From: Escherichia phage moskry
Sequence record: MN850651.1
DNA length: 64,000 bases
Strand: one strand, 5' to 3'
A model generated the notes under the pieces. The model did no database searches and was not told the origin of the DNA. It saw only the letters and a program-made list of their open reading frames with translations. The position numbers and the translations under genes were made by a program. Positions 1,482 through 54,929 of this stretch are shown in pieces (within the stretch, counting starts at the first letter, position 1; every line of letters begins with the position of its first letter).

Positions 1482-2030
1482 TTAACGAGCCCATTTAATG
1501 ATTTCTGTAATCAAATAATTACGTTCGCTTGCATTAAATCCTATAACTTTGTTAGCACCATCATGATTAAGTAATTGATACGTTTGGATTTTGTTATGAA
1601 TTGCAAACTCTTCAAAATATGAAATGACTGTATTAAAACCGAATGAAGACAAAGTAATAAGGTCGTCTTCAAAACTTTCAGTCATTTCGTTACGTGTTAA
1701 AATAATTGTGAACACATCATGGTTTTGGCAAAGACGAACATAATCCTGTTCATAAACATCAAGAACCGAGTCCGCATCTTGTCGAATACGTCCATAAACC
1801 CAGTTACTAATATATCCACGGTCTAACAGATAAATCTTAGTAGGGTCTAAATAATTCAACATCGTTTCGAAACAGCCGACTTCATTTCGAGACTTAACAT
1901 CGAAACGCCCATCAACTGTTCGTTTAGGGAAATCAATCTTTACATATCTTTCACTAATTTCCATTATGTCATTAATGAAAGTTGTTTTACCAGCATTATC
2001 CGGCCCGTCTACTAAAATAATTTTAGCCAT
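1482..2030 (-). CDS. P-loop nucleoside/nucleotide kinase-like protein (dNK/dNMP-kinase fold), unknown substrate
   Basis: 182 aa; Walker A VDGPDNAGKTTF; LDRGYISNW resembles the ERS/DRS motif of deoxynucleoside kinases; distinct from gp1. Confidence 0.55.
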   Translation of the reverse strand: MAKIILVDGPDNAGKTTFINDIMEISERYVKIDFPKRTVDGRFDVKSRNEVGCFETMLNYLDPTKIYLLDRGYISNWVYGRIRQDADSVLDVYEQDYVRLCQNHDVFTIILTRNEMTESFEDDLITLSSFGFNTVISYFEEFAIHNKIQTYQLLNHDGANKVIGFNASERNYLITEIIKWAR

Positions 2031-2031
2031 T

Positions 2032-2931
2032 TTATTCCTCGATTACGACATCTTCGTATTTAGGTATATTATACGGTGAAGAAATTAAAGCATTAAAGTA
2101 GATGAACTCACCAAGACCTGGATGGAATACTTCTTCAGGATTTTCGAAATATTGAATCTTCGGACGTCCTTTAAGAATTTGATAGTACTCAGTTTTAGTT
2201 GGATTAAAAATTCGAATCAGCGCTTCTTCAGGATACTTATTTCTGTCGAAGCTATTATTTGGATCGGTTATATAAAGCGGTTGACCTAATTGAATTGCGC
2301 ATTCAACCACTTGTTCAAAACGATAACACGGGTCACTAATTCGAAATGGATGAAAAATACCATCTAGATGAATAGGAGCCAAATCACCTACAAGACGCTG
2401 CATGATGGAAGGACGTATAACTTTCTGAGTTACGATAATCTTATTACCATCTGCACCTGCGTTAACCAGCACTTCTTTTTGACGTTCATTCAACACAGTA
2501 GTTTGAAGTGAACTATTAACTGACAACATATCGGTTTTTAAGAATTCGTCAATATAAAAACGTGGTTTATTAGGGTCTGCCGTGATATTGAAATTGAATT
2601 CTACATCAAAAGCGCCGTCATAACCAGTGATATCTGTTATTAGAAAATCACAATCATAATAAGCAATTAATGAATCAACCACAAATTCATTTTCAGACCA
2701 GAAATATTTACGAGTGTTATACGCGTTATCTTTATACCATAATGGAACAAACTTAAATTCCGGGAAAAGACGTTCACATTCTTTAATATCAGATGCATTA
2801 CGTGGATATGTAATCACATCACCTGGATTAGCACGGTGCAAATGAAGTTGGAAGTTGCCATCCTTAAGGATAGCATACTGTCCAGTTTCATAAGACCGCA
2901 TACTCAAAATAGGTACGCGGAAAATAGCCAT
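2032..2931 (-). CDS. Hypothetical protein in the T4 beta-gt position; candidate DNA sugar transferase
   Basis: 299 aa ORF, stop/start abutting gene 42 homolog; no resemblance to recalled T4 beta-gt. Confidence 0.55.
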   Translation of the reverse strand: MAIFRVPILSMRSYETGQYAILKDGNFQLHLHRANPGDVITYPRNASDIKECERLFPEFKFVPLWYKDNAYNTRKYFWSENEFVVDSLIAYYDCDFLITDITGYDGAFDVEFNFNITADPNKPRFYIDEFLKTDMLSVNSSLQTTVLNERQKEVLVNAGADGNKIIVTQKVIRPSIMQRLVGDLAPIHLDGIFHPFRISDPCYRFEQVVECAIQLGQPLYITDPNNSFDRNKYPEEALIRIFNPTKTEYYQILKGRPKIQYFENPEEVFHPGLGEFIYFNALISSPYNIPKYEDVVIEE

Positions 2932-3647
2932 TAGTCAAGAAATCCTTTAACATAATCAAAATCACGTTCAAACACATGGGCACTTACCATGGTATGAGTA
3001 TAATCACCAACTTCTACACCACATTCGTTAGCGATATAATGAAGTAATTTTCCTTGGAGATAAAAATCCAACTGCATAACAACAGCACAGTTCTGAGAAC
3101 GCATATGACAGTGGGTATAAAGCTTACCATCACGAATATAATAAGTCACTGAGTCAGTACATGGATATTCAAGTGTTTCGTCCGAATCAAGCAAAGCCTG
3201 ATCAGAACTTTCTAGAATTTGGAACACAACTCTTCGAGAGTTAGGTTTCTCTTTAAGTTCTTTTAGAAGAGCCGGTAATTGGGCCGCAATGCGAGGACCG
3301 TAGAAAGTGTTGAAGTTTGCAGGCAAAGCGTCTGATTTAGGTTTAGAAATAAATTTAGCGACATTAGGATATGCCTTAAACGCTTCTTCTGCATCAGTAC
3401 CACCAGAAATCATAAACTTCCAGAAGTCTTCGGCATATTCATAAGAGATGCGGTTAATACGTGGGTCGGTCATTTTGAATGATGATGGATTGTCAACAAC
3501 TACTGTCATGGACCCGATTTCATTACAACGTCCAATACGAGAATTAGTTACGAATTCGGGGTTTTCTAAAATTTCACGATTGACTGCTTTAAATGCGGTT
3601 TGAAAATCTGCGGCTTTGATATATTTCATTGTGTTATGTTTTCCCAT
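2931..3647 (-). CDS. 42: dCMP hydroxymethylase-like enzyme (thymidylate synthase superfamily)
   Basis: 238 aa; catalytic Cys context YPCTDSVTYYIRDGK and HMRSQN parallel T4 gp42 CTNTVQYLIRDKK / NMRSND. Confidence 0.75.
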   Translation of the reverse strand: MGKHNTMKYIKAADFQTAFKAVNREILENPEFVTNSRIGRCNEIGSMTVVVDNPSSFKMTDPRINRISYEYAEDFWKFMISGGTDAEEAFKAYPNVAKFISKPKSDALPANFNTFYGPRIAAQLPALLKELKEKPNSRRVVFQILESSDQALLDSDETLEYPCTDSVTYYIRDGKLYTHCHMRSQNCAVVMQLDFYLQGKLLHYIANECGVEVGDYTHTMVSAHVFERDFDYVKGFLD

Positions 3648-3689
3648 GTTTACCTCAATACAATTTATTATATACTCAATTCGTAAAGC

Positions 3690-3929
3690 TTATTTGAATT
3701 TCTTAGCAATGTTGATATAACGTAAAGCTTCAGAATCTATACTTCCAAGAACACTATGAAGGAATGCATCAGCGTAGTATTCTAGTTGAACAGGTTCTTT
3801 AATCGCTTTAGCCGCTTTAGTTTCAAACAGGCCCATAAGGGCCTTTTTAAGAATTTGTTCGTTGCTATTAATTTTTATGGTCAAAATCTCTTCATTAAGT
3901 TGGTGGTTAAAAGTTTTTCTAGAAATCAT
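3690..3929 (-). CDS. Small hypothetical protein
   Basis: 79 aa ORF co-directional within the modification block. Confidence 0.45.
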   Translation of the reverse strand: MISRKTFNHQLNEEILTIKINSNEQILKKALMGLFETKAAKAIKEPVQLEYYADAFLHSVLGSIDSEALRYINIAKKFK

Positions 3930-5104
3930 TCCGGGTACCTCAAAGCGTCGTCAGAGTTAGTTATATCAATAATAGATATAGAATTTTCTGATAACCCATT
4001 TTTAGATAACTGGCGTTTATAATATCTTTCACAATATGTACACGTCGTCCCGCAGATTTCATTAGCACAATCGAAATCTGGATGTCTGAACCACCTTTTT
4101 TCTAAAAAGCCGTCTAACAAAGAGGTTTCAATATTTACCGTATGTGAAAACTCGGTCTCATTTTCAAGAGTGAAAATGGTCTCTAAAGGCTTCCACAATT
4201 CCAACAAATTACCTTCAAACTTTTCAGAAGCATAAGCTTCAAGAACTTTCAAAATGTAGTCGGTGCTACCTGTACGTCCCGAAACTTTAAATTGAGTGAT
4301 ACCAATATCGTTATAAAGTTTCAAATCTTGGGGACGAACAAAACGAGTTCTCAACCAGTTAAATGGGTCTGTATCACGAGCTTTAATACAGTGCTGCATA
4401 GGATATCCGTTTAAGGATTTAGCATCATCAGCCGTAACATCAGTACTATGGAAAATATAGCAAGAGTCACGATAGCTACAATGTGTTGTATACCCTTTAC
4501 CAGCATTAGAACAGAACTCATTTACAAGAACTTCAAATATTATATTGTTCTTATTGCAAAACTCTGCTGCACGCTTCAGGAAAGAAACTGAACGGTTCTT
4601 ATGAATTCCACAGCAGACCTTTTTGATATTATATTGGTCATGCAAGTATTTGATTTGAGTTACAGCATCGACATGTAGAATTGTTGAAACTTCAATCTCA
4701 ATGTCTTTATTGACTTCACGAACAATTTCCATAACAACAGGGTTAGCGATAGTAATACGCCATACGCCTATTGACCAAAGATACTGAACATAATCCTGAA
4801 TAGCTTTCTTCTTCCACTCAACTAGTTCTCTTTTTGAACCAGGATTTATCGTGTTGAGTGTATAGTTAAAGCAAATACCTAATTCGTTACAACGTTTAAC
4901 GTAGTCTTCTAACATCTTTTTGTCAACGTCAGGAAGCCTAAAATCAGGTCTGGCTGCTACAAAAGCCATTTCTCTTGTAGAGCCGTATACTTCGTTTATC
5001 AAGCTATTAGGATAAGTTTTATTGAGCTCTACGATTTTATCAAGAAGAGCTAAATCAAAATTCGTTCCGATTTTAAAAGTATTCATTTTTTTTTTGCATC
5101 TCAC
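3926..5104 (-). CDS. Hypothetical protein with C-terminal Cys cluster; candidate sugar transferase or accessory enzyme
   Basis: 392 aa; C-terminal CANEICGTTCTYCERYY; no family recognised by eye. Confidence 0.55.
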   Translation of the reverse strand: MRCKKKMNTFKIGTNFDLALLDKIVELNKTYPNSLINEVYGSTREMAFVAARPDFRLPDVDKKMLEDYVKRCNELGICFNYTLNTINPGSKRELVEWKKKAIQDYVQYLWSIGVWRITIANPVVMEIVREVNKDIEIEVSTILHVDAVTQIKYLHDQYNIKKVCCGIHKNRSVSFLKRAAEFCNKNNIIFEVLVNEFCSNAGKGYTTHCSYRDSCYIFHSTDVTADDAKSLNGYPMQHCIKARDTDPFNWLRTRFVRPQDLKLYNDIGITQFKVSGRTGSTDYILKVLEAYASEKFEGNLLELWKPLETIFTLENETEFSHTVNIETSLLDGFLEKRWFRHPDFDCANEICGTTCTYCERYYKRQLSKNGLSENSISIIDITNSDDALRYPE

Positions 5105-5145
5105 GTTAATTGATGCGATGGTTTTTGCAGGTCTTACTTAAATTA

Positions 5146-5547
5146 TTATAGATTAGGTTTATATGATTTAAATGTTTCGAATTCGCCTTTATTCATAAGA
5201 GCTTTGAATTCGTCAGGACGCATAGCTTTGTCGTCGATAATCCAATCATATACTGGTTTATGTGTTAGCAAATTATGGTACTTCAAGCCAATGTTTGCTA
5301 AGTTCTGAATCAGACTTGGGAGAATGTCAATTGCTATACGACCAGGACCTACTGACTTCATACCGCGAGCAGTGTAAAGCGTTATGGTATGCCCTGCATC
5401 ATACAGGGCATTAATGGCAGACACCATTTCGACGTCTGGTTTGAAGTTCACGTAATCACGATTGTTATTCCACTCTGTTATACAATCATCGACATCAAAA
5501 CAAAGATTAAGCATGTTTTCTACACGGTGCATTAGATTCGTTCCCAT
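5146..5547 (-). CDS. HAD-superfamily-like small phosphatase (putative sugar-phosphate phosphatase)
   Basis: 133 aa; motif-I-like FDVDDCIT, motif-II-like ITLYTARG, Lys and IIDDK downstream. Confidence 0.5.
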   Translation of the reverse strand: MGTNLMHRVENMLNLCFDVDDCITEWNNNRDYVNFKPDVEMVSAINALYDAGHTITLYTARGMKSVGPGRIAIDILPSLIQNLANIGLKYHNLLTHKPVYDWIIDDKAMRPDEFKALMNKGEFETFKSYKPNL

Positions 5548-7217
5548 TGATGAGTGATATCGCCACCAATTGGGCGATAAGAAACACCAGTTTCTTTATC
5601 AGTTAGTACCCATTTACCAGGATTTTTTGTAATCAGAGTAGCCGTTACAGGTTCTGCTACGTCATAACTAATAGAGCCGTCTTGAAGTACACGGCCCATG
5701 TTACGTAATTGCTTAGTCAGAAGTTCCATACCTTTATAATATGCAGCTACCGCTTTAAGTGGATTATTCTTGAAATAACCACCTAATGCAATCCAGATAA
5801 TTGCCACTGCCAAATGATGATACTCGTTAAACGAACTCATCTTTCCATATTTGTAAACTAATGGATTGATGTTAATAGTCACATTACAAGTTGTTTCATC
5901 AATAGTAAACTGTCCCCAGGTCGGATTAGCGTTGAATTCATCATAACCTGAAACAGCATAAAGCACTTTAGCTTCATCGTACAATTTTGGCCCGTAAATC
6001 TTGGTTTCCCCAAAATATCCACGAGGGTCGATAAACTTGACTTCGCCGTTATCAGTAATCATAGTATTACTGAAGTTCGGGTCACCATGAATAACAGAGT
6101 ACTGTCCCTGAGAACGGTTATGATAACGAATAAGGTGTTCTAAAGCTTGTTTCAGCATTGGCTTCAGACGCCCAATCTTAGTGTAGTTCACATGGGTGAT
6201 TTTACCAAATGAATCAATCAATGGTTGAATGCTTTCACAACGATCAATAACTTTCGTATAGAATTCTTTAGTGAAATCACGGCGAACAGTTTCAGGACTT
6301 ACAAAATAAGTGTCTGTGCTGAATTTCAGTGCATCTAAAATTGCATCAACAATTTGTGGACGAGCAAGACTTGATTTGGATTTAATATATTCAAATGCCG
6401 GCTTACCTTTAATGCGTTCCATTTCAAAGTTATTTTCATTAACAGAAACTAACTGAGGAACTGAATCTGATTTCACTTTAAGATACCATGAAATCTCATC
6501 TTTCTGAAGAGCTCGACCCTGTTCGGTTAATGCGAATTTAGTTACAGTTTCTTCACCAATTTCAACTGCATTAAAACTACGATTAAGTTCACGAACTTCA
6601 TGAGCTTTTTCAAGTTTAGGCATATCACCTAAATCAATTAGATTCATAAGCTCTGATTTATTGAATGCGCTGCCGTAAAGGAATTCTACGAAATCGCGTC
6701 CTTTGCAGTATTCATGAATTTCCTCATCGGTAGAACCCATATAGAATTCCCAGTCTTTGAACTGATAAATTCCTACAACATTACCACCTGTTGAACCTAC
6801 GTTAGTGATATTTTCACCGTCGAAATTATATCGACATTCGTCACCCTTAACATAGATTGCGTTAACATTCCAAGACCATGAACCAAAATCGGGAATAATA
6901 TCACACCAGTTAACAATTACATTATGGCCGTCTAAATCTTTGTGTAATTTAGCAAGAGCATAAGCAGAACCGTACGCTTCATCAACTGTACGAATAGTCA
7001 CATTGAACCCTTCTTGCTCACAATAAGCTCGAACAGTTTCAGCAAATTTTGAATGAACTACTACAATAATTTCATCTGCGCCAAGGTCAGAATAAATTGT
7101 ATACAAATTGCTCAGAATAGTGTCTTGTTTATAGTTAACAAGCACCTTAGGAATATGATGCGTTATTGGATATAAACGAGTCGCCAGTCCAGCACCAAGA
7201 ATAACAGCTTTTTTCAT
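5532..7217 (-). CDS. Bifunctional sugar-1-phosphate nucleotidyltransferase (N-term) / APH-choline-kinase-fold anomeric sugar kinase (C-term)
   Basis: 561 aa; N-term AVILGAGLATRLYPIT..PK (RmlA/GalU-type); C-term VIHGDPNFSNTM and FIDPRG (kinase catalytic loop). Confidence 0.7.
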   Translation of the reverse strand: MKKAVILGAGLATRLYPITHHIPKVLVNYKQDTILSNLYTIYSDLGADEIIVVVHSKFAETVRAYCEQEGFNVTIRTVDEAYGSAYALAKLHKDLDGHNVIVNWCDIIPDFGSWSWNVNAIYVKGDECRYNFDGENITNVGSTGGNVVGIYQFKDWEFYMGSTDEEIHEYCKGRDFVEFLYGSAFNKSELMNLIDLGDMPKLEKAHEVRELNRSFNAVEIGEETVTKFALTEQGRALQKDEISWYLKVKSDSVPQLVSVNENNFEMERIKGKPAFEYIKSKSSLARPQIVDAILDALKFSTDTYFVSPETVRRDFTKEFYTKVIDRCESIQPLIDSFGKITHVNYTKIGRLKPMLKQALEHLIRYHNRSQGQYSVIHGDPNFSNTMITDNGEVKFIDPRGYFGETKIYGPKLYDEAKVLYAVSGYDEFNANPTWGQFTIDETTCNVTININPLVYKYGKMSSFNEYHHLAVAIIWIALGGYFKNNPLKAVAAYYKGMELLTKQLRNMGRVLQDGSISYDVAEPVTATLITKNPGKWVLTDKETGVSYRPIGGDITHQWERI

Positions 7218-7258
7218 GTTGAAGTCCTCATTGGTAAGTAGGAGTATTGTACACTATT

Positions 7259-7402
7259 CTAGTTAAAGCATTCATACTTTGCTTGTAGTCCAATCATAAT
7301 CCATCCAATTACAAGTGTTGGAATCATTACTGGAGCCGTTAAGCTCCAGTAGATAGTCATGACAAGCATCAATAGTAAAAGTCCTATTGTTATTGCTTTC
7401 AT
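7259..7402 (-). CDS. Small hydrophobic membrane protein (47 aa) in imm-equivalent position
   Basis: ATG overlaps upstream stop (ATGA); MKAITIGLLLLMLVMTIYWSLTAPVMIPTLVIGWIMIGLQAKYECFN; below ORF-track size cutoff. Confidence 0.4.
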   Translation of the reverse strand: MKAITIGLLLLMLVMTIYWSLTAPVMIPTLVIGWIMIGLQAKYECFN

Positions 7403-8034
7403 TGTTCGCCTCGTAACATGGCACCTAGTGCACCGCCTGGATGGAACTTAAGGAAGTCATTAGAGGTAAATCCACGCTCAGACGAAAGGTTGATAGCGAA
7501 CGTATCGATAAGCGCTAACAACAATGTAGTGGACATAGTCGGAGCTAAAGAGTTCTCGTCAACTTCTACCGCGATACCGGTACAGAACGTATAATCAAAA
7601 AGAGCTTCGTATTCTTGTGGAATGTCAGGGTTACAATGCAACAGAATCTGTTTGACGTTCGGGCGAATCATTTTAAGATGCTTAGCCACGCCTATCATTT
7701 CTTCAGTTTTACCAGAACGACTAATATGAATCAACACATCATTAGGCGCAATGAATCCTGCATCACCGTGAGAATAATGCCCAGTGTTCAAGTACATACT
7801 AGGGATACCGAGTGAAGCAAATGTCTCAGAAGCTTTAGTTGCAATATTAGCATTCTTACCAACACCTGTAATAATTACTCGGCTTTCATAATTACTAAGT
7901 CCCGGGCGTCGAAGAGTTTCTAGAATAGCATTATAACGAGCAGGGTTTTGACTAATTACTTTGGCCATAGCGGCCAAAGAAGAAGCTTGTTTTATGATTG
8001 CGTCAATAGCGATAGTAATAGGAGTAGTTTTCAT
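7399..8034 (-). CDS. SIS-domain sugar-phosphate isomerase, KdsD/GutQ-type arabinose-5-phosphate isomerase-like (no CBS domains)
   Basis: 211 aa; GVGKNANIATKASETFASLG..HGDAGFI..ISRSGKTEE..LAPTMSTT..FHPGGALG parallels E. coli KdsD SIS domain. Confidence 0.75.
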   Translation of the reverse strand: MKTTPITIAIDAIIKQASSLAAMAKVISQNPARYNAILETLRRPGLSNYESRVIITGVGKNANIATKASETFASLGIPSMYLNTGHYSHGDAGFIAPNDVLIHISRSGKTEEMIGVAKHLKMIRPNVKQILLHCNPDIPQEYEALFDYTFCTGIAVEVDENSLAPTMSTTLLLALIDTFAINLSSERGFTSNDFLKFHPGGALGAMLRGEQ

Positions 8035-41288: not shown

Positions 41289-41618
41289 TTATACTCTAGG
41301 CTTTTGAGCTTGTTTGGTATTGGATTCCCATGCGGCTTTGGTAATTTTGTTAGCGGCATAACCAAAGGCATTAGATAGAACACCTTTAGAGTTGAATACA
41401 TCCAATCCAATAAGTACACCGGCTGTGTTAAATTTAGGAGCAAAGTACGCATTAGTTTTAGAAAGAGCTTTTTTCAATTCAGGGTCTTGAACCAAGCTAT
41501 CAAAAACACCTTTACTATTTACTTTATATGTTACTTTGGGATTTTTACCTTCTTCGATAGCAGCTTTCTGTTCCGCAGATAATGTAACTTCAGTGATAAA
41601 CTCCTGATATGTTTTCAT
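41289..41618 (-). CDS. Internal (capsid-injected) protein with capsid-targeting sequence
   Basis: 109 aa; N-terminus MKTYQEFITE matches the T4 IP targeting sequence MKTYQEFIAE. Confidence 0.75.
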   Translation of the reverse strand: MKTYQEFITEVTLSAEQKAAIEEGKNPKVTYKVNSKGVFDSLVQDPELKKALSKTNAYFAPKFNTAGVLIGLDVFNSKGVLSNAFGYAANKITKAAWESNTKQAQKPRV

Positions 41619-41643
41619 TTTGTTCCTATTGTTTTAATTTATG

Positions 41644-41958
41644 TTATTCTTTAGGGAAGTTTTTAGAGTATGCGTCATAAAGTTTATTACCGATGCGACG
41701 GAAGACTTTAGCTGCAAAACGGTTTTCAGGGTTTTTAATCATGATTTGCATCATGTAAGTTCCTGCATCCGAAAGAGCTTCTTCATAGTACCCATTAATT
41801 TCTTTAAGAGTCCTACGTTTACCACCAGGACCATCAACAGTAATTTTCCATTTACCTGTAGAAGTGCGGCTCGGTGGCTCAACTTGTTCAATCCAAATAT
41901 AACCACCTTCAACGCGTTGGTTGGCGGATTCTGCAATAAATTCTTTATACGTTTTCAT
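41644..41958 (-). CDS. Internal protein with capsid-targeting sequence
   Basis: 104 aa; MKTYKEFIAE; early promoter GTTTACG-N17-TATAAT upstream. Confidence 0.75.
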   Translation of the reverse strand: MKTYKEFIAESANQRVEGGYIWIEQVEPPSRTSTGKWKITVDGPGGKRRTLKEINGYYEEALSDAGTYMMQIMIKNPENRFAAKVFRRIGNKLYDAYSKNFPKE

Positions 41959-42021
41959 TTTTGTTTCCTTGTTTGTTTTGATAGAGTAATTATACCATAT
42001 TAATACTTAAGCGTAAACAAT

Positions 42022-42282
42022 TTAAGCTTTACCGCCAGAAATAATTCCGAAGTTGTTAAAATCATATCCAATATCGTCAACATCTACTTTAGGACTTGCT
42101 ACAACATAAGCAATTTCACTACGTTTTGCATAGGTGTTGATTTCTTTACCATCGCCACCTAAGAAAGAATACCCATTACGTTTTAATGAGCCAAAGTCTT
42201 CCGCATCACCAATGAAAGCTTTAACTTTAAATTTAGGGTCTTTGGCATCTGCTTCATTGATAAATTCTTGATACATTTTCAT
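42022..42282 (-). CDS. Internal protein with capsid-targeting sequence
   Basis: 86 aa; MKMYQEFINE. Confidence 0.7.
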   Translation of the reverse strand: MKMYQEFINEADAKDPKFKVKAFIGDAEDFGSLKRNGYSFLGGDGKEINTYAKRSEIAYVVASPKVDVDDIGYDFNNFGIISGGKA

Positions 42283-42288
42283 TTTTCC

Positions 42289-42702
42289 TTAGTAAATTGA
42301 TTTACCATAGTATTTGTACCAAGTCGGACGTTGAGCAATTTTTTCATCTAAGCGTGCTTGACTTATCGCAATGGACGCTTCGGACGGGACATAATTATTA
42401 CGAAATTCGGCAGGGATGTCGGAAATATCCTGGACTGTCGTGTCCTTGATTTTGAAACCACGTTTCAAGCATTCAGCGATTAGCTCGATTTGTCGTAAAC
42501 GTAAAAATTCGAGTTTGTCGTAAAAGAATGTTACGTGACCTGTGCCTAAGATAAATGTTGGAGAGATTTTAAAATCCTTTACACGTTTACCGTTTTGAAC
42601 ATGTTTACGGACTGCACCAAATACGCGTGGTAATTCACGATACTCAGCCATAAGATGTTGGTCGGCCAGTTCAGAAACAAGTGTTAAATTGATACGGGTC
42701 AT
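42289..42702 (-). CDS. denV: Endonuclease V, pyrimidine-dimer DNA glycosylase
   Basis: [35 protein letters not shown]... matches T4 DenV; start at internal ATG. Confidence 0.95.
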
Positions 42703-42760
42703 AATTTCCTCCAAGTAGTTGATGAATGTATAGTATCAAAACCCTTGGAGGAAGTAAACA

Positions 42761-43042
42761 CTATTTTTCTGAAGCGCCTGAAATATATTTTTCAAGACGT
42801 TGTTTCATTAGCGAGCCGTTCTTAGCGATTTCTTCCGGTTTATCGCACATACGTAACAAGGCTTCAAGCTTAGCGATATCGCTAGTACGTTCAAATTTGC
42901 GAGTATCTATCTTACTAGCAAGTTCAGAAATACGTGCTAGTAGACTTTCGGCTTCAACCAAAGCTGCACCTAGCTTAGTTGCAAATGTGTCAGTAGCTTC
43001 GTTAAGAATAGATTCTGATAAAAATTCACTATATGTTTTCAT
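42761..43042 (-). CDS. Internal protein with capsid-targeting-like N-terminus
   Basis: [10 protein letters not shown]...; start taken at internal Met of the track ORF. Confidence 0.65.
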
Positions 43043-43527
43043 ATATACGCTTTCCAAGTTCCTGTTTTAAATGTTGAGATTACACGTTTCGCGCGATTAG
43101 GTGTCTGACGATACCATTTAGATTGGGCTAGATTTACTGCCGCTTCATCCCAACGTTTCTGATGAAGCATACGAAGAGAATTAGTAAAACCGGCGACGCC
43201 TGCTACACCCATTTGGAAGACCATATTGACCAATGCACAACGACGAACCGCATCTAAAGAATCATATACCGGTTTAAGTTTAGCATTACCCAAGATTCCG
43301 CGAACGGCTTTATCAACGTCTTCATTAAATAGCTTTTCAGCCTCATCAAGGGTAATTGTACCGTTGCATTTACGTCCGATCATTCTGTCAAGTTCAGCTT
43401 TAGCTACGGCTAAAGACGGGTTCTTTGTTACTAAATGGCCTATGCCAATCGTCCAAAAGCCTTCGGTGTCTTTGTATAAAGTCAGTCTAAGACCTTCGTC
43501 ATTACGAAGCATTTCAAATATATTCAT
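43039..43527 (-). CDS. e: Lysozyme (endolysin) e
   Basis: [32 protein letters not shown]... matches T4 lysozyme. Confidence 0.97.
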
Positions 43528-50845: not shown

Positions 50846-51478
50846 TTACTTACGAGTTTTTGCATACTGAGCAGCGTCAGCAGCCAAACGACCTGCCTGA
50901 CGAAGTTTTTCTTTAATCTCATCATGAAGTGGTTGAGTATACTTCAAACCTTCGATAGTCAAATAAAGACGATAAAGGTCTGGGGTATCAAGGTTGTTGA
51001 TATGTTGGCCATTACGAAGACTATTGAATTCACGAACGAGTGAAGATGTATCGGATTCAATATCACGAACAAGCGAAGATAGTTGTTTATATTTTTTTTC
51101 CAGGCTAGAAGTATCAAACTTAAGAGCAGGAGCTTTAGGAGTTGCTTTTACTTCAGGCTTAGGCTTAGGTTCAGGTTTTGCTATTGCTTTAGGGGTCGCA
51201 GGTTTAGGAATGGTAGGAGCAGGTTTTACTTTAGGCGAACCCGATTTAGCAGAAACACCACCACTAACAATATCTTTGAATGCTTTAGAAGCTCTGTAAT
51301 ATTCTTTTTGGCTGGAAGTGTCGATACCGTACATGGCTTGAACGTTTTTGAAAAACTCTGTACTAGTTTTTGTACCAGAAATAGCATCGTAAGCAGCTTG
51401 CCATTTCTCTTTTGTCATACGTACGCCGGCTTCGGTGATTACTTCCGTTTCGGCTAAAAATTCATTAAAAGTATACAT
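50846..51478 (-). CDS. Internal-protein-like head protein with Pro/Lys-rich linker
   Basis: 210 aa; N-terminus MYTFNEFLAE (targeting-sequence-like); PKVKPAPTIPKPATPKAIAKPEPKPKPEVKATPKAP; TATAAATA late promoter motif at 51512-51519. Confidence 0.6.
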   Translation of the reverse strand: MYTFNEFLAETEVITEAGVRMTKEKWQAAYDAISGTKTSTEFFKNVQAMYGIDTSSQKEYYRASKAFKDIVSGGVSAKSGSPKVKPAPTIPKPATPKAIAKPEPKPKPEVKATPKAPALKFDTSSLEKKYKQLSSLVRDIESDTSSLVREFNSLRNGQHINNLDTPDLYRLYLTIEGLKYTQPLHDEIKEKLRQAGRLAADAAQYAKTRK

Positions 51479-51522
51479 TGATGGTCCTTAGAAAGTGGGT
51501 TTATTGTTTACTATATTTATAC

Positions 51523-51550: not shown

Positions 51551-51853
51551 TATATACCTTGTCGGGGTTCCACCTGCTAAGGCAAGTGTTTGTACGAAAC
51601 GCCGGGATTCGAACCCGGTTATTAAGTAGTTGACGCTACTCAATATTTTTAAAAGGCCATATCTCGACCATATCCGAACGTTCCGTCAAAAACGCTACTC
51701 GGCTTACGGCAAAGATATTTCCTCGAATCGATAATTCGGTGCGCCGTTTCTGCTGTGATGTAAGGGGATATTAACAAATCGTAAAGATTTATTAAGACCA
51801 GTCCTTACTCAGGGAACATCAGTCCGACGACTTACCGGTAGCGACCCGGCTTC

Positions 51854-52198
51854 TTATTTTGACATATCATCAATTTGCTCTCGACGCCGACGCCATAGAT
51901 TAATCGCTTCATTAACACATTCGGCGTTTGGTATATGACGGCAATAATATAATGATTCGCGTTTCTGGAACCGATGTTGCAATGGGATTTCGTTTAAAAG
52001 GTCTTTACGGTCAAAGTATTCAAAACTAGTTAACCCAGAACGGTTTTTAAGGAACTTCCAATGACCGAATTCATTTTGAACATAGATGTAATCTGCATGT
52101 TGGTATAACAAATTAATCAATCGGTCTGAAATAACTGTATCATGTTCGTTAAAATAAAACGTTAAATCATGAACTACTAAGTAAACATTACCTTTCAT
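51854..52198 (-). CDS. Hypothetical protein adjacent to tRNA genes
   Basis: MKGNVYLVVHDLTFYFNEHD...; ORF track start at 52246 would overlap tRNA-Arg, so internal Met preferred. Confidence 0.45.
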   Translation of the reverse strand: MKGNVYLVVHDLTFYFNEHDTVISDRLINLLYQHADYIYVQNEFGHWKFLKNRSGLTSFEYFDRKDLLNEIPLQHRFQKRESLYYCRHIPNAECVNEAINLWRRRREQIDDMSK

Positions 52199-52219
52199 AT
52201 TTTCCTCACTTGAAGTTGG

Positions 52220-52293
<74 letters not shown>

Positions 52294-52299
52294 AATATA

Positions 52300-52373
52300 T
52301 GACCCAGACCAGATTCGAACTGGTAACCTTTCCCTTATGAGGGGACTGCTGCTAACCATTGAGCTACAGGGCC
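52300..52373 (-). tRNA. tRNA-like gene, anticodon CAU (Met or lysidine-Ile type), irregular D-arm
   Basis: T-arm ACCAG-TTCGAAT-CTGGT, anticodon loop CTCATAA, acceptor GGCCCTG/CTGGGTC with one U-U mismatch; D-stem does not pair canonically. Confidence 0.5.
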
Positions 52374-53878: not shown

Positions 53879-54166
53879 TTACAGAAGAGTTTTTGCAATA
53901 ATTTTAAGCTGAGCTACAGAAATATGCTTAGCTTTAAACAGTGCAGTCTCTTCAGCCGGAGAGATAACAATAGTAGCGCCATCTTTCTTAGCAGACCATC
54001 CATCCCCTAAGTAAACAGTACCTTTTACTTCTTCGCCGTCAACCAGGCCAATCATTGGTTTACCCTCACGTCCTTTATTTGCTTTAATAACTTCGGAAGT
54101 AAGGGTTGCTTCGGTTAGAGTAGAAACATTAGCATCAGGTGATATAAATTCTTTATAGGTTTTCAT
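53879..54166 (-). CDS. Internal protein with capsid-targeting-like N-terminus
   Basis: 95 aa; MKTYKEFISP... Confidence 0.6.
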   Translation of the reverse strand: MKTYKEFISPDANVSTLTEATLTSEVIKANKGREGKPMIGLVDGEEVKGTVYLGDGWSAKKDGATIVISPAEETALFKAKHISVAQLKIIAKTLL

Positions 54167-54243
54167 TTTATTTCCTTGAGGTCGTTTATTTGATAGGATG
54201 ATAGTAACACACCATCATCCTTATGTAAACTGTTTTGTGAAAA

Positions 54244-54929
<686 letters not shown>

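Follow-up and report, generated by a model that had tools for sequence, protein, structure and literature searches.

Internal protein genes of the T4 type around denV and at two further sites in an RB69-like Mosigvirus

Introduction

Why should neighboring genes of a phage encode proteins that begin almost alike and continue with unrelated bodies? The question is raised by the region around denV in an RB69-like Mosigvirus, of which a stretch of 64 kb, called the window in the following, has been analyzed here. Mosigvirus-type phages are widely isolated for phage therapy. A preliminary description of this DNA had assigned four ORFs of the region, together with two further members, to the capsid-targeted internal proteins (Ips) known from T4, and had suggested that the set may be tuned to a differently modified genome.

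The Ips are the first phage molecules to face host defenses and help to set the host range. In agreement with the earlier statement that the injected T4 proteins counter modification-dependent restriction, T4 Ip1, Ip2, and Ip3 each inhibit a distinct type IV enzyme of the GmrSD family, with no cross-protection (PMC12373910), and IPIII is required on strain ECOR17 (PMC9391042). Variable IP loci and over 30 IP variants have already been described in the literature, as has the role of T4 Ip1–3 as specific GmrSD inhibitors. The array studied here is real, was correctly interpreted, and is largely known already. The value of the present work lies in an ordered catalogue and in two families that lack annotation; the established picture is unchanged, and no new principle emerges.

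Results and Discussion

Genes and Their Setting

The six tag-bearing ORFs and their surroundings are collected in Table 1. The coordinates of the four ORFs in the denV region are confirmed, and the two more distant members that had been listed also exist, with the tag motif at residues 4–10. Five of the six lie in the known variable IP loci, i.e., the denV–e region and the ipI–57B region, while 50846-51478 is outside both, at a third site flanked by e.8 and rnaC. Within the array, denV is placed between the third and the fourth tag ORF. The third has its start codon 7 nt past the denV stop codon, and the start codon of the fourth, a member of the Ip5 family, overlaps the e stop codon in the sequence ATGA, e being translationally coupled to it. 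The gene of the prohead protease lies outside the window.

Table 1. Tag-bearing ORFs, landmarks, and regulatory elements of the window
Feature	Coordinates	Strand	Length	N-terminus or sequence	L/I-x-E site	Remark
Tag-bearing ORF	41289-41618	minus	109 aa	MKTYQEFITE	ITE10	
Tag-bearing ORF	41644-41958	minus	104 aa	MKTYKEFIAE	IAE10	Ip10 family
T4-early-type promoter-like site	41989-42017	minus		(G)TTTACG, 17 nt, TATAAT		TG before second hexamer; upstream of Ip10-family gene
Tag-bearing ORF	42022-42282	minus	86 aa	MKMYQEFINE	INE10	
denV (endonuclease V)	42289-42702	minus				conserved landmark within hotspot; not an internal protein
Tag-bearing ORF	42761-43042	minus	93 aa		LSE10	Ip5 family
e lysozyme gene	43039-43527	minus				landmark at hotspot boundary
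Tag-bearing ORF	50846-51478	minus	210 aa	MYTFNEFLAE	LAE10, ITE16	
Late-promoter consensus, exact T4 form	51514-51521	minus		TATAAATA		36 nt upstream of 50846-51478
Tag-bearing ORF	53879-54166	minus	95 aa	MKTYKEFISPDANVSTLTEA	LTE19	ipI orthologue
Inverted repeat	54195-54221	minus	11 nt	GTTTAC ... TACTAT		inside early-type promoter region upstream of ipI

Sites resembling early-type promoters are located ahead of the Ip10-family gene, denV, and ipI. The site at 41989-42017, which is a consensus match only, agrees at 10 of 12 positions and is the sole strong site in the array; the number of sigma-70-type sites in the region is not above that in shuffles. An element comparable to the promoter and inverted repeat ahead of ipI has been reported at IP loci (PMC2839356). 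The late-promoter match at 51514-51521 is preceded by a GC-rich hairpin with a T run, and its assignment to the 50846 gene is suggestive, by position only, the six exact TATAAATA matches in the window being not above chance. No exact match to this consensus lies inside the denV array; late synthesis of the array genes, a prerequisite for packaging, would be expected because they are coupled to e and denV and because of the T4 precedent.

The Capsid-Targeting Sequence

T4 IPII and IPIII both have the N-terminus MKTYQEFIAE, and T4 IPI begins with MKTFKEFTSTTTPVSTITEA. Six matches to the core motif [YF]xEF[ILM]x[EP] are present in the six-frame translation of the 64 kb, and all of them are residues 4–10 of the six minus-strand ORFs, so that the search gave no seventh tag-bearing member in the window. 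In 200 shuffled sequences the mean is 0.195 and the maximum is 2.

Residue 4 is Y or F and residue 7 is F in every one of the six proteins, and each has an L/I-x-E site, at residues 8–10 in five of them and at residues 17–19 in IpI, in accord with the known specificity of the prohead protease gp21 (PMC9026906). Mutagenesis of the T4 tag has shown that residues 4 and 7 matter for targeting and residues 8 and 10 for processing, and that the 10-residue tag is enough to package foreign proteins in T4 (PMC9026906). All four of these residues are kept in the six proteins of the window. The tag-coding DNA forms a family of 32-nt direct repeats with an identity of only 72–81%, in which Thr3 is encoded by ACA, ACG, ACT, and ACC and Ile8 by ATC, ATT, and ATA. 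Because synonymous codons vary within the tag, it is the tag peptide that is under selection. In a set of 85 ORFs that carry the tag at related loci, hardly any variation is seen at K2, T3, I/L8, and E10 or in the small residue at position 11, none of which had been demanded by the search pattern.

Protein Bodies

Once the tags are removed, BLASTP gives no matches for the bodies except for that of 53879 with the T4 IPI body (92.7% identity), and hhalign of 12 tag-stripped family alignments yields a probability below 10% in all 66 pairs, which upholds the earlier view that the bodies are unrelated to each other. T4 IPII or IPIII bodies are not found among the window proteins. A common origin of 41289 and 41644, both of which match phrog_3966, was considered and rejected, as their BLASTP similarity is limited to the tag region and the tag-stripped profile comparison gives a probability of 0.1%. 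It is likely that phrog_3966 mixes two families, since the joint match vanishes without the tag. The five proteins other than IpI have no Pfam, NCBIfam, or PDB sequence match; the sub-threshold noise included low-complexity matches to CsgH, filamin, HLA, and TonB.

The identity of the ORFs as internal proteins is corroborated by their context and by homology to IpI, Ip10, Ip5, and "internal head protein" entries, four of them (53879, 41644, 42022, and 42761) falling in families named or annotated as such. The most direct case is 53879-54166, the orthologue of RB69 ipI, which matches Pfam PF11634 (IPI_T4) at 1e-49 and PDB 2JUB over residues 20–95; homology to these two is limited to this member among the six. 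The PDB IPI* chain begins at residue 20 of the window protein, and the propeptide comprises 19 residues ending in LTE, followed by A, leaving a mature IPI* of 76 aa. GmrSD cuts RB69, and the IpI of this phage protects it (PMC6024577).

The 41644 ORF, in which S follows the tag, is the counterpart of RB69ORF124c, of which the RB69 record holds a truncated form. Its product is 72% identical to a protein of phage SP18 annotated "Ip10, similar to Ip10 of Bacteriophage Pol" and 96% identical to the Ip10-family members of the Tequatroviruses SH7 and slur11. The 42761 ORF corresponds to RB69ORF127c, again with S after the tag; it matches phrog_3499 "internal head protein" (2e-46) and has 47.6% identity over 90% of its length to RB15 ip5 (Z35082) and to ipV of phage PST. 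Relatives of Ip5 are also encoded by Tequatroviruses. The counterpart of RB69ORF125c, 42022-42282, has A after the tag, a predicted mature form of 76 aa with a pI of 5.2, and a match to phrog_2667 "internal head protein" (1e-21). Its family is present in 219 phage records, several of which, including SP18, VR7, and S16, are annotated as internal head protein. The AlphaFold2 model of this protein, built from a 5-sequence alignment, has a pLDDT of 48.9 and is unusable.

For the other two members, 41289-41618 and 50846-51478, the public records give only "hypothetical" despite the tag, and no Ip name is attached to their families in the database records examined. The former is the orthologue of RB69ORF123c, with V after the tag and a predicted mature form of 99 aa (pI 9.7). 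Its unnamed family is represented in 90 phage records, with an identity of at least 95% in 76 of these; the protein is largely confined to Mosigvirus, with distant copies (36–38%) adjoining denV in Dhakavirus AnYang.

The 50846 protein begins with MYTFNEFLAE/TEVITE/AG, the slashes marking the predicted cuts, while its homologues start with the canonical MKTYNEFLNES..VLSEAG, in which the second L/I-x-E site is conserved. Its predicted mature form (~21.5 kDa, pI 9.8, net charge +14) would consist of a helical N-domain and a C-domain of three helices, joined by a disordered Pro/Lys/Ala linker. The AlphaFold2 model has a pLDDT of 71, and a Foldseek search of it against the PDB gave no structural match, the hits being generic helical hairpins, all with E-values above 0.3. 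The family, which matches phrog_2280 (function unknown), is found in 138 phage records, functional annotation being absent among the matches listed, and in only 13 clusters among 1.84 billion representative proteins. It occupies a fixed locus, with allelic variants, in Mosigvirus, Dhakavirus, and Enterobacter, Serratia, and Yersinia phages, is absent from T4, and has its C-terminal domain replaced in some members (P0038, P0041). As a single family at a fixed site in several genera, it looks less like an arms-race cassette.

Cassette Exchange at the Hotspot

The variability of the region was assessed with denV as the anchor for 80 related loci, of which those on 36 T4-like contigs whose denV identity was 60% or higher were used. 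In these 36 contigs, the number of tag-bearing ORFs per denV locus ranges from 0 to 5, and the ORFs belong to at least 15 unrelated families, arranged in differing order to either side of denV. The closest relatives carry an IPIII-family body in place of the Ip10-family body of 41644. In the comparison with a relative of 95% nucleotide identity, the homology ends at 41930, where the tag of the Ip10-family gene has its last codon, and returns at 41627, 9 nt ahead of the next tag gene, the IPIII-family body lying in between. Swaps among close relatives thus break exactly at the tag-coding repeat. At the ipI locus, RB69 ORF156c is missing here relative to RB69, and the junction is in the repeated promoter–RBS–tag segment. 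The mapped junctions show how shared tag-coding DNA enables the exchange of these inhibitors. We have also considered a recent inter-genus transfer of the Ip10 cassette, which has 86% nucleotide identity to Tequatrovirus SH7 while its flanks have 71–80%; the difference is too modest, and the transfer was rejected.

Proposed Function and Alternatives

Taken together, the six ORFs are quite probably T4-type internal proteins that act as injected, probably anti-restriction effectors. Each product would carry an N-terminal capsid-targeting sequence of ~10 residues (19 in IpI), which is expected to dock it on the scaffolding core of the prohead. Cleavage by gp21 past the Glu of the L/I-x-E motif is predicted after residue 10, after residue 16 in the 210-aa protein, and after residue 19 in IpI, and the freed bodies (8–21 kDa) would remain in the head and be ejected with the DNA, and hence would act ahead of phage gene expression. 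Most likely, each body would bind and block a single variant of a first-line nuclease of the host, and the best candidates are type IV enzymes of the GmrSD/BrxU family directed against sugar-modified cytosine DNA, here arabinosyl-5-hydroxycytosine. Both flanks of denV, the ipI–57B junction, and the third site beside rnaC are recombination hotspots, where recombination in the repeated promoter/RBS/tag segment swaps the bodies and gives each phage its own combination. The tags, the cleavage motifs, the homology to named Ips, the swap junctions, and the modification genes are established here, and we infer the packaging, processing, injection, and targets of these particular proteins; the searchable literature yielded neither proteomic nor genetic data on them and no virion proteomics of RB69-type Ips. 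Among the six, only IpI has a known target, and the anti-restriction role is derived by analogy from three T4 proteins, because the non-IpI bodies have no Pfam, NCBIfam, PDB-sequence, or structural match.

As for the differently modified genome, the window does encode the RB69-type arabinosyl-5-hydroxycytosine cluster (cf. PMC13326640), and arabinosylated DNA is cut by GmrSD/BrxU enzymes (PMC6024577, PMC13390438), that of Mosigvirus by BrxU (PMC13390438). This part of the earlier proposal stands. Tuning of the set to the modification is unproven, because several Ip families are also present in phages with glucosyl-hmC. As judged from their distribution, the families are not specific to the arabinosyl modification, IpI being shared with T4, and Ip10 and Ip5 being also found in Tequatrovirus, and the specificity of the T4 Ips is for the enzyme variant and not for the DNA adduct. 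Each uncharacterized Ip body is a candidate specific inhibitor of type IV restriction, and the Mosigvirus set provides five such candidates in phages with arabinosylated DNA.

The proteins could instead be packaged and injected but have other targets, such as other immediate defenses, host transcription or metabolism (as for Alt), or competing phages. Such a role would fit bodies that are unrelated to Ip1–3 as well as to each other, with a characterized homologue for IpI alone, and the action of all Ip-locus proteins against GmrSD is a hypothesis of PMC12373910, in which three proteins were tested. However, all three of these T4 Ips proved to be GmrSD inhibitors without cross-protection (PMC12373910), and a GmrSD family that is extremely diverse and cuts arabinosylated DNA (PMC13390438, PMC6024577) would select for many specific inhibitors; we consider other targets rather unlikely. 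A little less likely again is that some members, above all the basic 50846-51478, serve chiefly to build or assemble the head core or act as DNA counterions, in line with the morphogenetic side of T4 IPIII and not as anti-defense effectors. Three of the bodies are strongly basic (pI 9.6–9.8), as would also be expected under the older view of structural proteins associated with DNA, and mature 50846 is near T4 IPIII in size and charge, has a putative TATAAATA late promoter of its own, and forms one family that keeps its double cleavage motif and its locus in several genera; moreover, T4 IPIII-minus and IP0 mutants show aberrations of head assembly (PMC9026906). Yet the family is missing from T4, the swapped C-terminal domain in P0038 and P0041 is typical of accessory and not of core functions, and IPIII, the structural precedent, is itself a GmrSD inhibitor (PMC12373910).

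It is very improbable that the shared N-terminus is a recombination by-product of conserved translation-initiation regions and that the proteins are ordinary unpackaged early proteins. The early-type promoter-like sites before the Ip10-family gene, denV, and ipI and the cassette junctions within the RBS/tag segment would be compatible with this, but the conservation at the amino acid level with free synonymous change, the near invariance of the tag in the 85 ORFs, the sufficiency of the T4 tag for packaging foreign proteins (PMC9026906), and the functioning of RB69 IpI as an injected inhibitor (PMC6024577) all argue against it. The reading as injected, probably anti-restriction internal proteins is preferred.

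The 50846 product may be a late-promoter-driven, doubly cleaved, and modular protein, with a conserved N-domain and an exchangeable C-domain joined by the Pro/Lys/Ala linker. That this family constitutes a third IP locus overlooked in database annotations, and that 41289 is an inhibitor of a type IV enzyme recognizing arabinosyl-5-hydroxycytosine DNA, are two tentative proposals, possible but on the whole doubtful. If true, the third locus at 50846 would conflict with the published confinement of Ip genes to two loci.

Comparison with Known Systems

The window proteins resemble the T4 Ips in the tag, their copies being 1–4 positions off MKTYQEFIAE, in the L/I-x-E motif, in the location in the denV–e and ipI–57B intervals, and in the mature size of 8–21 kDa. 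While 53879-54166 is a direct IpI orthologue, the other five bodies have no relationship to the T4 Ips. The arrangement differs as well: both denV-locus genes of T4 lie between denV and e, whereas in the window one lies there and three lie beyond denV.

The polymorphic Ip families of the T-even phages, Ip4–Ip12 (Repoila et al. 1994 and Comeau et al. 2007, as cited in PMC12373910, PMC2839356, and PMC4122927) and others, likewise have unrelated bodies behind a conserved leader and are found at small hyper-variable loci with early-promoter/stem-loop flanks, as in the window. The Ip5 of Tequatrovirus is at ~70–75 kb, about the ipI locus of T4, whereas that of the window adjoins e and denV.

A broader parallel, drawn in PMC12373910 itself, is with the anti-CRISPR and anti-defense hotspots, which also hold small, unrelated, and rapidly exchanged genes at fixed positions, each probably directed against one variant of a defense. 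Unlike the products of such hotspots, those of the genes described here would be preloaded in the virion through a shared cleavable peptide and hence act before gene expression, and the DNA encoding the Ip tag doubles as the recombination junction.

Tag-Bearing Genes and Their Families

The six ORFs that the preliminary description had listed as opening with a T4-type capsid-targeting sequence (the tag) are all present, on the minus strand. In the T4 reference proteins the tag reads MKTYQEFIAE (IPII and IPIII) or MKTFKEFTSTTTPVSTITE followed by A (IPI). Six-frame translation of the 64 kb yields the core motif [YF]xEF[ILM]x[EP] six times, always as residues 4-10 of a listed ORF, while shuffled sequences averaged 0.195 and never exceeded 2; the list is therefore real and complete for the window. 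The L/I-x-E motif, which is the cleavage specificity of the prohead protease gp21 (PMC9026906), occurs in all six proteins, at residues 8-10 in five of them and 17-19 in IpI, the 210-aa protein having a second site at residues 14-16 that its homologues keep. Among 85 tag-bearing ORFs of related loci, found with a pattern that left these positions free, K2, T3, I/L8, E10, and a small residue at 11 are nearly invariant. At the DNA level the tags are a family of 32-nt direct repeats with only 72-81% identity and free synonymous variation (Thr3 as ACA, ACG, ACT, or ACC; Ile8 as ATC, ATT, or ATA); it is the peptide that is conserved.

Positions and assignments of the features discussed
Feature	Position	Strand	Assignment
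Unnamed family	41289-41618	-	90 records, nearly all close relatives; annotation hypothetical only
Ip10 family	41644-41958	-	72% identity to "Ip10" of Shigella phage SP18
Internal head protein	42022-42282	-	phrog_2667 match; annotated so in SP18, VR7, S16
Inverted repeat upstream of denV	42706-42715 / 42744-42753		perfect, 10 nt
Ip5 family	42761-43042	-	ip5 of RB15 (Z35082), 47.6% identity over 90% of length
210-aa protein	50846-51478	-	138 records; no functional annotation among the 30 matches listed
rnaC homologue	51593-51731	-	99.3% identical to T4 over 139 nt
rnaD homologue	51738-51857	-	87.6% identical to T4
tRNA-Arg(UCU), tRNA-Met(CAU)	52217-52373
IpI	53879-54166	-	Pfam IPI_T4, 1e-49; PDB 2JUB aligned to residues 20-95
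Arabinosylation cluster	1482-8034	-	RB69-type, cytosine
299-aa ORF	2032-2931	-	counterpart of RB69 gp46:47, by position
Thymidylate-synthase homologue	2931-3647	-	part of arabinosylation cluster
U32-like protein		-	part of arabinosylation cluster
NTP-transferase	5532-7217	-	RB69 counterpart gp52:53, an NTP-transferase/kinase fusion
SIS-domain isomerase	7399-8034	-	part of arabinosylation cluster

The remainders of the proteins (the bodies) had been described as unrelated, and this is borne out. With the tag removed, BLASTP gave no match among the bodies or to T4 IPII and IPIII, the sole exception being IpI, which is 92.7% identical to T4 IPI. Tag-stripped alignments of 12 body families from related loci, compared in all 66 pairs with hhalign, reached a top probability of 8%; these alignments are shallow, and very remote structural kinship would remain compatible with them. 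The 41289-41618 and Ip10-family proteins have nothing in common beyond the tag. Both match phrog_3966 over their full length (1e-32 to 1e-34), which in view of the null comparisons is best read as a PHROG mixing two families that the 10-residue leader apparently brought together.

The 2JUB alignment fixes the mature N-terminus of IpI. The SP18 Ip10 is itself annotated as "similar to Ip10 of Bacteriophage Pol", and the window protein has 96% identity in the Tequatroviruses SH7 and slur11; the Ip5-family protein also matches ipV of phage PST (Tequatrovirus). Distant copies of the 41289-41618 gene (36-38% identity) adjoin denV in Dhakavirus AnYang and others, and on these matches it is the sole family largely confined to Mosigvirus.

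The segment 41000-43600 is 97-98% identical to the Mosigvirus genomes BEU50 (so classified), JK36, APCEc01, and RB69 (at 63156-65761). The RB69 counterparts of the four denV-region ORFs (RB69ORF123c, 124c, 125c, and 127c) are all labelled "hypothetical", and two of the four are "internal head protein" in the APCEc01 RefSeq annotation. The RB69 record of 2003 (AY303349) has apparent frameshifts in ORF127c, ORF124c, and the 210-aa-family gene. ORF127c (64922-65215; 3267-3560 of the fetched locus L001) reads MKTYMNFYQNLSLNEATD, differing from the 18-residue stretch of the window, its tag having been lost through two mutually compensating frameshifts; ORF124c is cut to 90 aa, the window protein aligning in two pieces. 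A similar sequencing error was reported in RB69 genes 46/47 (PMC13326640).

Cassette Junctions around denV

With denV as anchor, 80 loci were fetched from viral contigs, 36 of them T4-like (at least 60% denV identity). The T4-like loci carry 0-5 tag-bearing ORFs each, from at least 15 mutually unrelated families lying on either side of denV in varied order, IPIII being found on both sides. Against a locus of 95% nucleotide identity (L005), collinearity stops at window position 41930, the last tag codon of the Ip10-family gene, and restarts at 41627, 9 nt ahead of the ATG of the next tag gene; between these breakpoints L005 has an IPIII-family body. Another locus (L004) has, in addition, lost the 41289-41618 gene or never had it. 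In Shigella phage SH7 (Tequatrovirus; NC_054942 58633-63947) the locus has no denV, e being followed directly by an Ip10-family gene, a 157-aa tag-bearing gene, and then the vs genes.

Comparison of window 54144-54244 with L084:5232-5700 shows that RB69 has an extra tag gene between ipI and 57B, ORF156c (MKTYQEFIAEATKADKNF..., 108 aa), which the window is without. The 55 nt at window 54144-54198 align to both RB69 copies of a promoter/stem-loop-RBS-tag segment, and this double alignment indicates that the indel stems from recombination between the two copies, which are direct repeats.

As in T4, the Ip10-family gene, denV, and ipI each follow an early-type promoter-like site (GTTTAC, about 17 nt, TAnnAT); at denV and ipI the site also contains inverted repeats, in agreement with the "IP-associated elements" (PMC2839356). 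The repeat upstream of denV has the same arrangement in T4; one arm, CTTGGAGGAA, holds the denV Shine-Dalgarno and the other lies just past the GTTTAC element, which suggests that ribosome access to denV may depend on the promoter that made the transcript.

The 210-aa Protein

This gene, with e.8 and rnaC as its neighbours, is found at neither of the two classical IP loci. Upstream of it are a hairpin with a T run and then an exact T4 late-promoter consensus, TATAAATA. RB69 carries a divergent allele here (L084:1929-2491), split into ORF148c and ORF149c, which starts MKTYAEFLTE and reaches an hhalign probability of 89% to the 210-aa family, partly driven by the tag. The rnaC homologue is conserved far above the surrounding DNA; neither it nor the rnaD homologue reaches the Rfam gathering score.

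The tag reads MYTFNEFLAE. Homologues in other genera start MKTYNEFLNES..VLSEAG, and more distant ones MLKFKDILTES, MITFNEFLNES, or MLQYNEFLKES; by this comparison MYTFNEFLAE is read as lineage-specific drift. The AlphaFold2 model (11 sequences, pLDDT 71) predicts a small helical N-domain (residues 13-72), a disordered Pro/Lys/Ala linker (74-115), and a three-helix C-domain (121-208), and a Foldseek search of the PDB with it gave no significant match. Among 1.84 billion representative proteins, a profile search recovered only 13 clusters of the family, two of which (P0038 and P0041) have a different C-terminal domain. Both retain the tag, N-domain, and Pro/Ala/Lys linker, and their C-terminal domains are unrelated, which points to domain swapping inside this family as well.

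DNA Modification and Comparison with Known Systems

The set had been suggested to be tuned to a differently modified genome. The window does carry an arabinosylation cluster, with uvsX on one side and the DNA polymerase gene on the other. Its 299-aa ORF and NTP-transferase, single ORFs here, are both split in the RB69 record. Such a cluster was shown to make arabinosylated 5-hydroxycytosine (PMC13326640); RB69 DNA is cut by GmrSD, with protection by RB69 IpI (PMC6024577), and arabinosylated Mosigvirus DNA is cut by BrxU (PMC13390438). On this point the suggestion has the right selective background. None of the results, however, demonstrates adaptation to the adduct as such: the IpI, Ip10, and Ip5 families are shared with glucosyl-hmC Tequatroviruses. 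Specificity in T4 is for the enzyme variant: Ip1, Ip2, and Ip3 each block a different GmrSD enzyme with no cross-protection, and all Ip-loci proteins were proposed to target GmrSD variants (Silas et al. 2025, PMC12373910).

The six-gene feature is real, and the internal-protein interpretation is supported at the sequence level. This interpretation, including the anti-restriction role in T4, coincides with the accepted view (PMC9026906, PMC12373910, PMC9391042). A review covers the tag, the mutagenesis done on it, and the view that it allows T4-like phages to load a variety of proteins (PMC9026906), growth on ECOR17 needs IPIII (PMC9391042), and polymorphic IP loci with more than 10 Ips are credited to Repoila et al. 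1994 as cited in PMC12373910. The principle of variable tag-bearing Ip loci is thus already known; the present analysis adds the gene-by-gene family assignment, cassette junctions resolved to the base at the tag repeat, and two families unannotated in databases (41289-41618 and 50846-51478), the latter at a third locus.
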